From a virus (lineage: Duplodnaviria > Heunggongvirae > Uroviricota > Caudoviricetes): a stretch of DNA of 14,655 nt. Of the stretch, positions 3,001 through 6,000 are shown piece by piece. Position 1 is the first letter of the stretch. Each line of letters begins with the position of its first letter. The position numbers were made by a program. The stretch is from the IMG/VR virus record IMGVR_UViG_2695420475_000001. The stretch is one strand, 5' to 3'.

Positions 3001-6000
3001 GAAACTTGGCTGCGGATTCACTCACGCATACCAGGCTGAGCCCATACACCGACATGTTCGTGTGGGTATGAGCGCCGAGGGACACGACCCCCTCGGCGGC
3101 GCGACTGCGCACTCAGGTCGACAGGAAGGGATACTACTTTGCTCGGCCTCCCTGAGTCTCGAAACCCATTCTACTGATCCTGGCTTAGATGGAATCCCAC
3201 AACGGAAATAATGAACCATTTCCGCAGGTCAGGATGGTTCACCCACATGAACCCCTGCGCCATGTCGTAGCCTCTTAAAAGGAGAGTGCGAACGCAGTGA
3301 GCACGCACCTCCCGCTAGGGAGGCCCACGCCGGATTGGCGTGGCTGCCCGGAGGGCATCAACCTCCAGACCGCAGCGTCCCCACTTGAGCATGGTTCTCG
3401 GTGAAATGAATAACCCTTGCAGTCAAGGTATCTCACGTTGAGATGGAGGTAGTCGTTACGTAAGTCGGGAACGGTACTAGAGCGCGCACGCGCGAACCTG
3501 CTACCCACATGAACCCGAAATGCGCTGCAAGACTTTGACACATGGGAATTGAAGTACAGAAGGCTCGCGGGAATGAGATCATCTACCGCACTCCGAACGG
3601 CCCTATCCATATCAAGGCTTGGGACGACAACGCGGGAACCTGGTACCTAGCGCTCAACGCTCCCGACCGATACCCGAACGGATCGCGCAAGCAAACTACC
3701 CATACCCTGCTCATCGGGCCCCAGCACCACGCGGATATTAAGGCGTTCGTCCAGGCCTTCGCCGCGATCTACGAAGCCGCGAACAAACCGAAAGCCCCTC
3801 GCAAGCTCGGCGGTCTGGACTGCGATGAAGCGCGTGACGGCACGGTGTGGGCTGACTCGGATGAGGGATTCCCTTTCCACTACCGATTCCGTGATGGTAA
3901 CTGGGAATATTTCGCTCTCGCTGGAGAGCGTAGCTGGAAAGTACTGGACGACCCGTACTCGCTTATCGGCCACGGCCCCTACGTCGAGGTGACCGCGTGA
4001 GCCACCACTCCCTTCGCCACAAAGAGATCGCATCAAAAGGACTAATCCTCCTCACCGAGGTTGGGTCCGGTCTGCATGGTGTGACTCTCGCTAACACCGA
4101 CGACCATGACGAGATGGGTATCTGTATTCCTCCACCGGAATGCGTTCTGGGCCTGGAGAAGTTCGAGCAGTACGCCGATCGTTGGCACTCAGACGGGACG
4201 CGCATTCCTGACGGAGTGCGCAGTCAGCACGGCGATACCGATCACACGACGTATGCATTGAACAAGTGGGCTCGCCTTGCAGCGCAGGGGAACCCGACCG
4301 TTCTGCTCCCGTTGTTCGCACCCAAGGGAAAGATCTATAAGCAGACGCTGGAGGGCACTCAACTTCTTAGGGCCCGGAGCCTGTTCCTCTCGAGGGACGC
4401 TGGGTGGCGGTTCCATGGGTACCTGAAAGCCCAGCGTGCGCGCATGATCGGCGAAAAGGGTGAGTCGAAACACAAGAATCGCCGCGAGCTGGTGGAGCAG
4501 TTCGGTTTCGACACGAAGATGGCCTACCACGCTCTGCGCCTAGCTGTCCAGGGTTCAGAACTGATGACTCGCCAAACCATCACAGTTCCTATGGCTGCTT
4601 CGAACGTGAGTTGGCTTCGGTACGTGCGCAATGGCGGGGCATCACTCGAGGACGTGACACGGTGGCTGGATCAACTTACCGCTGCGCTTGAAATCGACAT
4701 CGCGGCCTCGAGCCTCCCCGATCACGTCGACCACGACCAACTGAACGACTTCCTAATTGGCCTGCACTACGGCTACTGGAAACGCACCGGTCAACTCTAA
4801 ACACGAAGGGATACGCATATGAGCAACAAGCGCAAGGACAGCATCGGAGTTCTCTCCAAGACCCAGGGAATGGTCAAGCTCGCGAAGCCGGGACCACCTG
4901 TTGCGGTTGGCACTCGCGTGACTGGGCACAACCTGGGCGCAGTGACGCACATTATCTCGATCGAAGCTGAGCGCGTAGGTGAGAAGCGCGCCATCGGAAT
5001 CACTTTCAATGAGGATGGCAGCCTACACGCTGTGACCGTCCACTCCGCCGAAGGTCCGCTCGCGGAATTCAAGCCAGGCACCCTCCTGAGCATTGGCGAT
5101 AGTGGAGACCTTGTCGTCTTCGATGAGGAGTACTTCTTCGACCCCGTCAGCGGTGCCAGGGTGGTTGAGGTTCGCTGATGAAGACCTACGTCCACAACCC
5201 CACTGAGGTTGAGGCTATCCAGGTAGTGCGGCCATGGAAGGGCGTTCAGGACGCTGTCCCGTTCGCTCACATGGTGAAGAAAGCCTCTGGCGCGTTCGAC
5301 TACTTCAAGGTTTCATTTCCAGGCATCTCAGAGGTTGAGCGCGCGTACGAAGGTGACTGGATCGTGAAGGACCACGGTTACTACGAAGTGCTCACGAATG
5401 TTCAGTTCCAGTATTACTACGGAGATGCCAATGGCCACGGCGACTGAGGCGGATGTCTCGCATCTGGTGGAGTCGGCATTTGATGAATGCGGATCCACCA
5501 ATAATGATGTCGAGCATCAGGGCAAAATCGCGGCGCTTTGGGTTGGTCACACTTGCGCTACCTACCTCATGTGCGAGGCACACTTCAAGCGGGCAATCGA
5601 CGTGCATATCCCTCGGCACAATCTCAAGATTGCGCAGATTGGCCACATCACCTGCGCGCTGTGTGATCGAAAGTTCCTCACCGCAGAGGAGTTTGTGAAG
5701 GTGTATCCACTATGACCATCACACTCCCCGACCTTGGGGATCTCGACATGGAGTCCGTGTTGGAGAACTCCTACAAGGACTTCCACTGCAAGGGCTTTGA
5801 TTACCTCTGCCTGTTTCGCTCACCTGAGCTCACGCTGAAGGCCTACTTCTTCGAGGGTGACGCCCAGGACGCGAGTGAGGTGGTGAACCCTCACAACCAT
5901 CGCTACGACTTCCACACCACGTGCCTGTCCGGCGCGGTGGAGAATCGCTGGTACCGGTCCTACCCATTCACCTTCGACGCTGAGTCGAAGCCACAGAGCT

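Follow-up and report, generated by a model that had tools for sequence, protein, structure and literature searches.

A conserved non-coding interval in the central control region of MabI prophages and cluster M mycobacteriophages: a candidate early RNA or leader

Early non-coding RNAs and the MabI control region

Cluster A mycobacteriophages produce an abundant and stable non-coding RNA (ncRNA) from the early promoter Pleft, before the first gene; this RNA is about 500 nt long, lies at the genome end and was demonstrated by RNA-seq and Northern blot (PMC5712189). Here we analyzed positions 3280-3495 of a 14,655-nt stretch (the window), which corresponds, reverse-complemented, to bases 30544-45198 in an IMG/VR virus record of 78.6 kb. 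The interval lies behind a predicted promoter, P1, and had been proposed from the sequence as a novel structured ncRNA upstream of a nucleotidyltransferase operon (the original prediction). Our analysis gives about an even chance to the reading that it is an early promoter-proximal ncRNA or leader, analogous to the cluster A Pleft RNA. Both loci combine an early-type promoter with a few hundred bases lacking a conserved open reading frame (ORF) and then a first gene. The P1 unit differs in its length of 105-215 nt, in its place in a central divergent region, in having a second promoter behind it and in that its transcript is a predicted one, and blastn against 50,697 phage records revealed no sequence homology of the P1 region to the L5/D29 RNA. 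If the P1 unit acts as RNA, it would be a second, unrelated example beside the unexplained early ncRNAs of cluster A phages; if it consists of DNA sites, it would show where the switch region of these phages lies.

In the lambda nut sites and the HK022 put RNAs, a conserved sequence and a hairpin directly follow an early promoter and precede a terminator. The P1 unit resembles these antitermination RNAs in that layout, and the likeness is one of resemblance only: its conserved 5' block is unique and absent behind other early promoters, the gene downstream has its own promoter and is leaderless, and no factor of the N or Q type was recognized. A site of the nut/put type was rejected, because the block is single-copy in the phage genome even when 4 mismatches are allowed. 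Base-pairing bacterial small RNAs carry a 5' seed, stem-loops and a Rho-independent terminator. The cluster M version of the P1 unit has this classical layout (invariant 5' end, hairpins, terminator with U-run), whereas the MabI version has no terminator, no target that we could find and no match in Rfam.

The window belongs to a MabI (cluster-M-like) prophage of Mycobacterium abscessus. A 501-bp query covering 3100-3600 showed identities of 98.5% to prophiT49-2, 97.4% to prophi86-1 and 90.5% to prophiGD54-2, all of them M. abscessus prophages. The organization of the MabI cluster is like that of the cluster M phages of M. smegmatis (PMC8092301; PMC9934374). According to the annotation of the relatives, the interval 3280-3495 sits inside a 456-bp gap in a central two-way control region between divergent units: an early operon transcribed leftward, which includes gene 65, ERF and a Cas4-type exonuclease, and a block of six genes transcribed rightward, among them gene 64 and the nucleotidyltransferase. 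A syntenic gap of about 560 bp is present in all cluster M subclusters. The gap contains no annotated feature in 29 cluster M and 3 MabI GenBank records; the region is better conserved than the surrounding genes, yet unannotated in every record. The right half of the prophiT49-2 genome has no annotated repressor. Mycobacteriophages serve as therapy against M. abscessus, and clinical strains spontaneously release MabI prophages.

Conservation, promoters and coding potential

Among four MabI lineages, 84-94% of the positions in each 50-nt bin of 3251-3500 were invariant, compared with mostly 55-80% in the flanking coding DNA, and the interval is under strong purifying selection. This conservation is the part of the evidence that is clearly beyond chance, together with the promoter motif described below, which is a real repeated element. 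Near the predicted transcription start, the conserved stretch contains the invariant 5' block AAGGAGAGTGCGAACGCAGTGAGC (3279-3302, + strand), 24 nt that are identical in all MabI sequences. Homologous blocks were found in all cluster M subclusters, where they differ from MabI only by a G to C change at the sixth base, plus an inserted C in the Rey group. A 24-base block is thus common to phages of M. smegmatis and M. abscessus whose adjacent protein, the nucleotidyltransferase, shares only about 56% identity between MabI and cluster M.

A distant blastn search of the region against the 50,697 phage records returned only MabI prophages and cluster M phages, and neither phage similarity searches nor block pattern scans yielded a copy of the 5' block outside these two groups, apart from the exceptions given below. 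A 22-base block pattern gave 0 matches in 596 Gb of genomes. A 17-base pattern gave about ten extra viral matches, which is roughly the chance expectation, except for those in a 47% GC metagenomic phage contig (L022) and in several phage contigs of 39% GC (the L029 group), both described in the last section.

P1 consists of a 13-bp phage-specific motif, CCCACATGAACCC (3242-3254, + strand), which lies within the palindrome GGTTCA-N6-TGAACC (3236-3253), and the -10 hexamer TAGCCT (3268-3273, + strand). The motif occurs in the 78.6-kb genome as 4 perfect and 5 one-mismatch copies, against 1-2 for a reversed control pattern, and it does not vary across 10 MabI sequences. Of the nine copies (<=1 mismatch), seven are followed 12-13 nt downstream by a TANNNT or AAGACT hexamer; the remaining two have no recognizable hexamer of either form. 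Four sites have an ATG 6-7 nt beyond the hexamer, as in leaderless genes of mycobacteria, and because these sister promoters place the leaderless ATG at that distance, transcription from P1 is predicted to start at ~3280-3281. The P1 hexamer fits TANNNT in every MabI and cluster M sequence. In cluster M phages these positions are occupied by another motif, CCTGTAATC; each genome has 5 such sites with a hexamer at the right distance, against 0 in controls. With this exchange of motif, the two elements of P1 are conserved in all relatives.

According to Pope et al. 2014 (J Virol 88:2461), in the summary given by PMC7953290, cluster M mycobacteriophages carry short intergenic conserved repeats, CR1-CR4, some of them preceded by stem-loops. 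The MabI and cluster M motifs behave like these repeats, which differ from the 5' block in being promoter-type elements and not a conserved transcribed block. The motif-type promoter is a general promoter class of this phage, and P1 is credible as a member. The motif-plus-TAGCCT promoter of the original prediction is therefore retained as a credible promoter of a phage-specific class, and what falls away is its exclusive assignment to the proposed RNA, as the motif is a general promoter element. In silico, the interval has the promoter of its own that an independent small RNA gene should have, with a motif-hexamer spacing about equal to that of most other sites.

The second promoter, P2 (3504-3544, + strand), comprises a motif copy at 3504-3516 and TG plus AAGACT at 3526-3534 and serves gene 64, which begins at a leaderless ATG (3542), and the same arrangement was found in cluster M phages with their own motif. 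Since gene 64 has P2 and a leaderless start without a ribosome-binding site, it does not need the P1 transcript, which is hardly its messenger. A third motif copy is inverted (TACCCACACGAAC, 3056-3068, - strand) and lies within annotated gene 65; its position matches that of a leftward motif promoter serving a leaderless GTG in cluster M phages, and no -10 hexamer was recognizable by eye. The zone 3151-3250 is the least conserved part of the gap. As a separate observation, the inverted repeats TGAACCAT (3214-3221) and ATGGTTCA (3234-3241), together with GGTTCA-N6-TGAACC overlapping the motif, give an operator-like symmetry around P1.

The crowding of these elements also suits a different explanation, which we consider possible although short of probable, namely that the interval is a DNA-level control region. 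Here the blocks would be sites for regulators of phage or host origin (a repressor, an activator or a WhiB-type protein) acting on P1 and P2, the hairpins would be incidental or insulating, and any transcript would be a by-product. The three motif copies within 460 bp, with the inverted one lacking a visible -10 hexamer, are consistent with this explanation, as are the palindromes GGTTCA-N6-TGAACC and TTACGTAA and the two WhiB-family transcription factors encoded by the phage. However, the invariant block is found past the predicted start rather than in the promoter, which argues against it.

On the + strand, an ORF of 35 codons runs from a GTG (3297-3404). It is open in every sequence, at lengths of 11-47 codons, and its peptide is not conserved; relative to a conserved downstream anchor, its frame is 0, 1 or 2 depending on the lineage. 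In GD54-2, a compensated frameshift rewrites six residues of the ORF while hairpin 3 is kept, and in phage Bricole the ORF stops at codon 12. The original prediction had named translation and protein-level conservation of this ORF as the outcome that would speak against an RNA; a conserved protein is excluded, because both frame and peptide differ between lineages, and a conserved small protein on the + strand was accordingly rejected. Given the single-base indels in the relatives, the overlapping 111-codon ORF on the - strand (3275-3610) should be broken as well. A decayed HNH endonuclease gene was also considered and rejected, as tblastn with the two HNH-like proteins encoded behind the block in other contigs detected no similarity in the intergenic regions of MabI, cluster M and cluster L or in the genome.

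An unconserved reading frame could still matter through the act of its translation. In this improbable alternative, P1 would give a short mRNA in which GTG 3297, with AAGGAG about 10 nt upstream, opens an upstream ORF or leader peptide whose translation controls termination or read-through. It would account for the invariance of GTG AGC and the purine-rich stretch, for the opening of an ORF in every sequence, and for the presence of the same block at the head of ORFs elsewhere (157 aa in the 47% GC contig, which shares the -10 region, and 89 aa in the 39% GC contigs). Against it, peptide, frame and length are all unconserved, down to the early stop in Bricole, and cluster M has AAGGAC, a poorer ribosome-binding site. 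The ribosome-binding site would moreover lie at the very 5' end of the RNA if transcription starts at 3280. By our estimate, the chance of an open frame of 26 codons in GC-rich DNA is about 0.5, and a 24-nt invariant block far exceeds the needs of a start region.

Hairpins, the cluster M terminator and DNA-level alternatives

The perfect-hairpin scan and inspection of the sequence located every element listed in the original prediction at its given position, ACCTCCA/TGGAGGT and ACCG/CGGT included. The stem GTGCG/CGCAC (3286-3290 / 3304-3308, + strand, 13-nt loop) shows no variation in MabI; in cluster M, GUGC/GCGC can pair in its place. Since the MabI pairs never vary, they speak neither for the stem nor against it. 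On the + strand, three abutting perfect GC-rich hairpins come next (3308-3323, 3325-3343 and 3345-3357 in the scan). In MabI their stems vary only in two sequences, which have lost a U at the base of the third hairpin, and the substitutions fall in the loops. Cluster M has one hairpin where MabI has three, with other letters in the stem and two covarying pairs, and two of the three MabI hairpins are MabI-specific insertions. MAFFT places the single cluster M hairpin on MabI hairpin 1 or hairpin 2, depending on the input sequences, and owing to this ambiguity the apparent covariation between MabI and cluster M is not rigorous. The three-hairpin cluster is unique in the 78.6-kb genome, and shuffled genomes average 0.55 such clusters; the listed hairpins and words alone are not clearly beyond chance.

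Further downstream, a weak hairpin, CACUUGAGC-AUG-GUUCUCGGUG (3383-3404, + strand), occupies the site of the cluster M intrinsic terminator, and A-to-G and C-to-U changes in relatives keep its pairing through G.U, which holds on the + strand only. The next two hairpins of the + strand (3415-3444) are not conserved: CCTTG/CAAGG (3415-3428) is broken in 3 of the 10 MabI sequences, and ATCTCA/TGAGAT (3430-3444) has two broken pairs, one in 5 and the other in 2 of the 10. Three MabI lineages form GTCAACG/CGTTGAC instead. The multibranch domain drawn in the original prediction is therefore not borne out, since three of its helices lose pairs and its 52-pair fold shows 0 compensatory changes across the 10 MabI sequences (nine of them close relatives), with 45 pairs that never vary. 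The proposed pairing of a Shine-Dalgarno sequence with its complement (GGAGGT/CCTCC) fares no better, as the helix ACCTCCA/TGGAGGT loses a pair in 4 sequences.

Searches for known RNA classes were blank, in agreement with the original prediction, which had recognized no tRNA, tmRNA, Y-RNA or hammerhead core. Rfam 15 gave no match at the gathering score in the whole window; at E <= 10 on 3150-3600, it gave only a 13.6-bit microRNA match, for which the threshold is 80. Rfam also returned nothing relevant in the cluster M loci and nothing on the L022 contig. The covariance search included Y RNA-like and tRNA-like models, riboswitches and ribozymes, and ARAGORN found 0 tRNA or tmRNA genes in the window.

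The cluster M unit folds into a short closing helix, the GUGC/GCGC stem, one 7-bp hairpin and a 9-bp GC stem. About 105 nt from the start, this stem runs into a stretch of U residues, seen on the + strand only. The terminator is canonical in subclusters M2 and M3, and the terminator scan calls it in Rey (2120-2133 plus the U-run); in subcluster M1 the U-run starts a few bases further on, and the scan called none in Bongo. With a promoter on one side and an intrinsic terminator on the other, the cluster M unit looks like a discrete small RNA gene. In the 7-bp hairpin, one pair changes from A-U to G-C, and another A-U pair becomes an A.G mismatch in some phages and U.G in others. The U.G and G.U pairs of the 7-bp hairpin, of the cluster M terminator and of MabI hairpin 3383-3404 are valid only in + strand RNA. 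DNA-level control does not readily explain the bracketing of the cluster M 5' part by a promoter-terminator pair, nor a hairpin after the block that swaps letters and keeps its pairing, including U.G. It is also at odds with the insertion of whole hairpins in MabI with the flanks undisturbed, which is typical of RNA. No U-run follows MabI hairpin 3383-3404, and the comparison indicates that in MabI the terminator is decayed to this weak hairpin and two extra hairpins are inserted. Separately, the sole terminator-like site in 3000-3650 lies on the - strand (3428-3405, CCTTGACTGCAAGG then GTTATTCATT), and its stem is broken in three MabI lineages.

That an RNA is made, where its ends lie and that it acts as RNA we infer from sequence. 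P1 (motif plus TAGCCT), one of three motif sites in the control region, would start an RNA at ~3280 that is transcribed but untranslated, with an invariant first 24 nt followed by GC-rich hairpins. The invariant 5' segment would be the likely binding surface. In cluster M, the RNA would be a discrete unit terminated about 105 nt downstream; in MabI, it would probably be longer, reaching the GC stem-loop at 3482-3494 after about 215 nt or continuing into P2. The original proposal of an undescribed phage RNA thus keeps its non-coding character, its place behind a promoter and its conservation, and loses the drawn fold and the nucleotidyltransferase partnership, which the relatives do not support. 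A bolder version, which we regard as unlikely, would make the P1 unit a new regulatory RNA family of cluster M and MabI, whose 24-nt end binds a conserved partner from host or phage, such as a member of the RlaP/RtcB/tRNA-array toolkit described below, and whose 5' module unrelated phages with a far lower GC content took over as a leader for HNH genes.

Several findings weigh against an RNA. The fold energies are unremarkable, with z-scores of -1.42 on the + strand and -2.63 on the - strand for 3280-3495, and -2.27 for 3280-3360. Compensatory changes are absent within MabI, paired and unpaired positions are about equally conserved, and variable columns of the MabI alignment are not significantly enriched at unpaired positions. 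In cluster M, covariation is confined to 2 of 25 pairs, both in the 7-bp hairpin, and amounts to essentially one evolutionary event. The terminator scan found no recognizable + strand terminator in 3000-3650 of the MabI window, and the literature examined contained no RNA-seq covering MabI or cluster M phages. In the phage genome, the invariant block has no complementary target beyond chance: 11- to 13-mers complementary to it, with G.U allowed, are no commoner than for shuffled seeds, and the sole 16-nt complementary site is antisense to early genes (on the + strand in an annotated near-relative) and is thus unlikely to be part of an mRNA. Two further points come from the distal part of the interval: the 18-mer AGTCGGGAACGGTACTAG also occurs inverted in cluster L phages, and the most conserved 50 nt of cluster M lie beyond the terminator, just upstream of P2. 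Both fit DNA sites, and the near-equal invariance of stems and loops without covariation in MabI suits DNA-level control in the same way.

The distal conserved segment (3430-3495, + strand) comprises CTCACGTTGAG, TAGTCGTTACGTAAGT, the 18-mer and the GC stem-loop at 3482-3494, and it is shared with cluster L. The cluster L homologues of 3430-3495 consist of CTCACGTTGAG, TAGT(G/C)GTTAC(G/C)TAAGT and a GC-rich tail, and in DyoEdafos and LeBron the distal pieces immediately precede the gene that opens the nucleotidyltransferase operon. As this 3' third is partly inverted in cluster L, DNA-level sites fit it at least as well as RNA does, and the facts on the distal part favour DNA-level sites or an ancestral 5' leader. 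In LeBron (2356-2625 of the locus), we also noted that annotated hypothetical gene 35 is homologous to unannotated intergenic DNA of DyoEdafos, including an inverted 17-mer; the call of gene 35 may be spurious.

The original prediction had also offered a replication origin or a single-stranded DNA structure, which we consider very improbable. The GC content dips to 0.47 at 3380-3440, from a local value of about 0.6, and this mild dip could be read as an origin signal along with the loosely repeated units GTAGTCG / GTAAGTCG and the dense hairpins. However, the AT-rich patch is the homologue of the U-run of the cluster M terminator, and there is no iteron family, the sole direct repeats being the promoter motif and two weak pairs. 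In the annotation of a near-relative, the genes for a RepA-like initiator and a DnaB helicase lie about 6 kb off, in the early operon.

Downstream operon, leftward side and occurrences elsewhere

The downstream operon (3542-4800, + strand) begins with a variable first gene, gene 64 (3542-4000), followed by the nucleotidyltransferase (3997-4800). Beyond its first few codons, gene 64 is exchanged wholesale among the MabI lineages, and we observed a sharp mosaic joint at 3542-3552, where the lineages are near-identical through ATGGGAAT of gene 64 and unrelated right after it. The nucleotidyltransferase matches Pfam PF10127, RlaP (RNA-repair-associated polymerase beta), with E = 4.9e-30. The enzyme is also carried by cluster C, cluster L and Gordonia phages, whereas searches recovered the region and its 5' block from MabI and cluster M alone; three cluster L loci with the nucleotidyltransferase, inspected directly, contain no copy of the block. 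The partnership between the RNA and the enzyme suggested in the original prediction is accordingly unsupported. Elsewhere in prophiT49-2, genes 109-139 include an RtcB ligase, a peptidyl-tRNA hydrolase, a release-factor-like gene, 24 tRNAs and a tmRNA; RlaP, RtcB and the translation genes together look like a complete kit for RNA repair and translation.

On the leftward side of the gap, a hairpin at 3074-3097 (GCCGAGGG / CCCTCGGC) with the conserved loop ACACGAC forms a further conserved element with structure, and its stems covary between groups, being CCCCTGGG/CCCAGGGG in subcluster M1 and CCCTCGGG/CCCGAGGG in M2 and M3. On the - strand, the annotated GTG start of gene 65 (3085) lies in the loop of the hairpin, and the purine-rich stretch of that gene lies in the stem. 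The adjacent segment 3101-3150, on the way from the leftward gene to the variable middle of the gap, is 96% invariant among the four MabI lineages, the peak of the 2.1 kb compared, and probably serves the leftward early operon as its 5' leader. By eye, a TAGAAT hexamer on the - strand (3173-3168) is conserved in MabI. Pairing of the P1 RNA with this leftward leader was tried and rejected, as it was no better than with shuffles.

The pattern scans also drew attention to sequences outside these phage groups. In a 64% GC metagenome contig of bacterial appearance (L021, 2445-2870, - strand), AAAGGAAAGTGCGAACGAAGTGAGC stands at the start of an ORF whose product, by eye, resembles a DCC-type thiol-disulfide oxidoreductase; this occurrence may be due to chance. 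The 47% GC metagenomic phage contig L022 (= L015), which carries an SU10-type portal gene, has TAGGGT, 7 nt and then the 24-nt block on its - strand (3400-3560), and there the block is the start of the 157-aa ORF, which has weak HNH-endonuclease matches. About 95 nt upstream of the block, the contig contains the word GGGGTAAAGGAATACC, which is close to a word of the cluster M gap; judged without an E-value, the extended match looks beyond chance. In the 39% GC phage contigs (L029, 11800-12140; also L023, L024 and L027), a textbook TTGACT-N17-TATAAT promoter is followed by a 5' leader that contains the core AGTGCGAACGGAGTGAGC directly before the ATG of the 89-aa ORF, in which an HNH-like motif was seen by eye. 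An upstream CACTC can pair with the GAGTG of the block.

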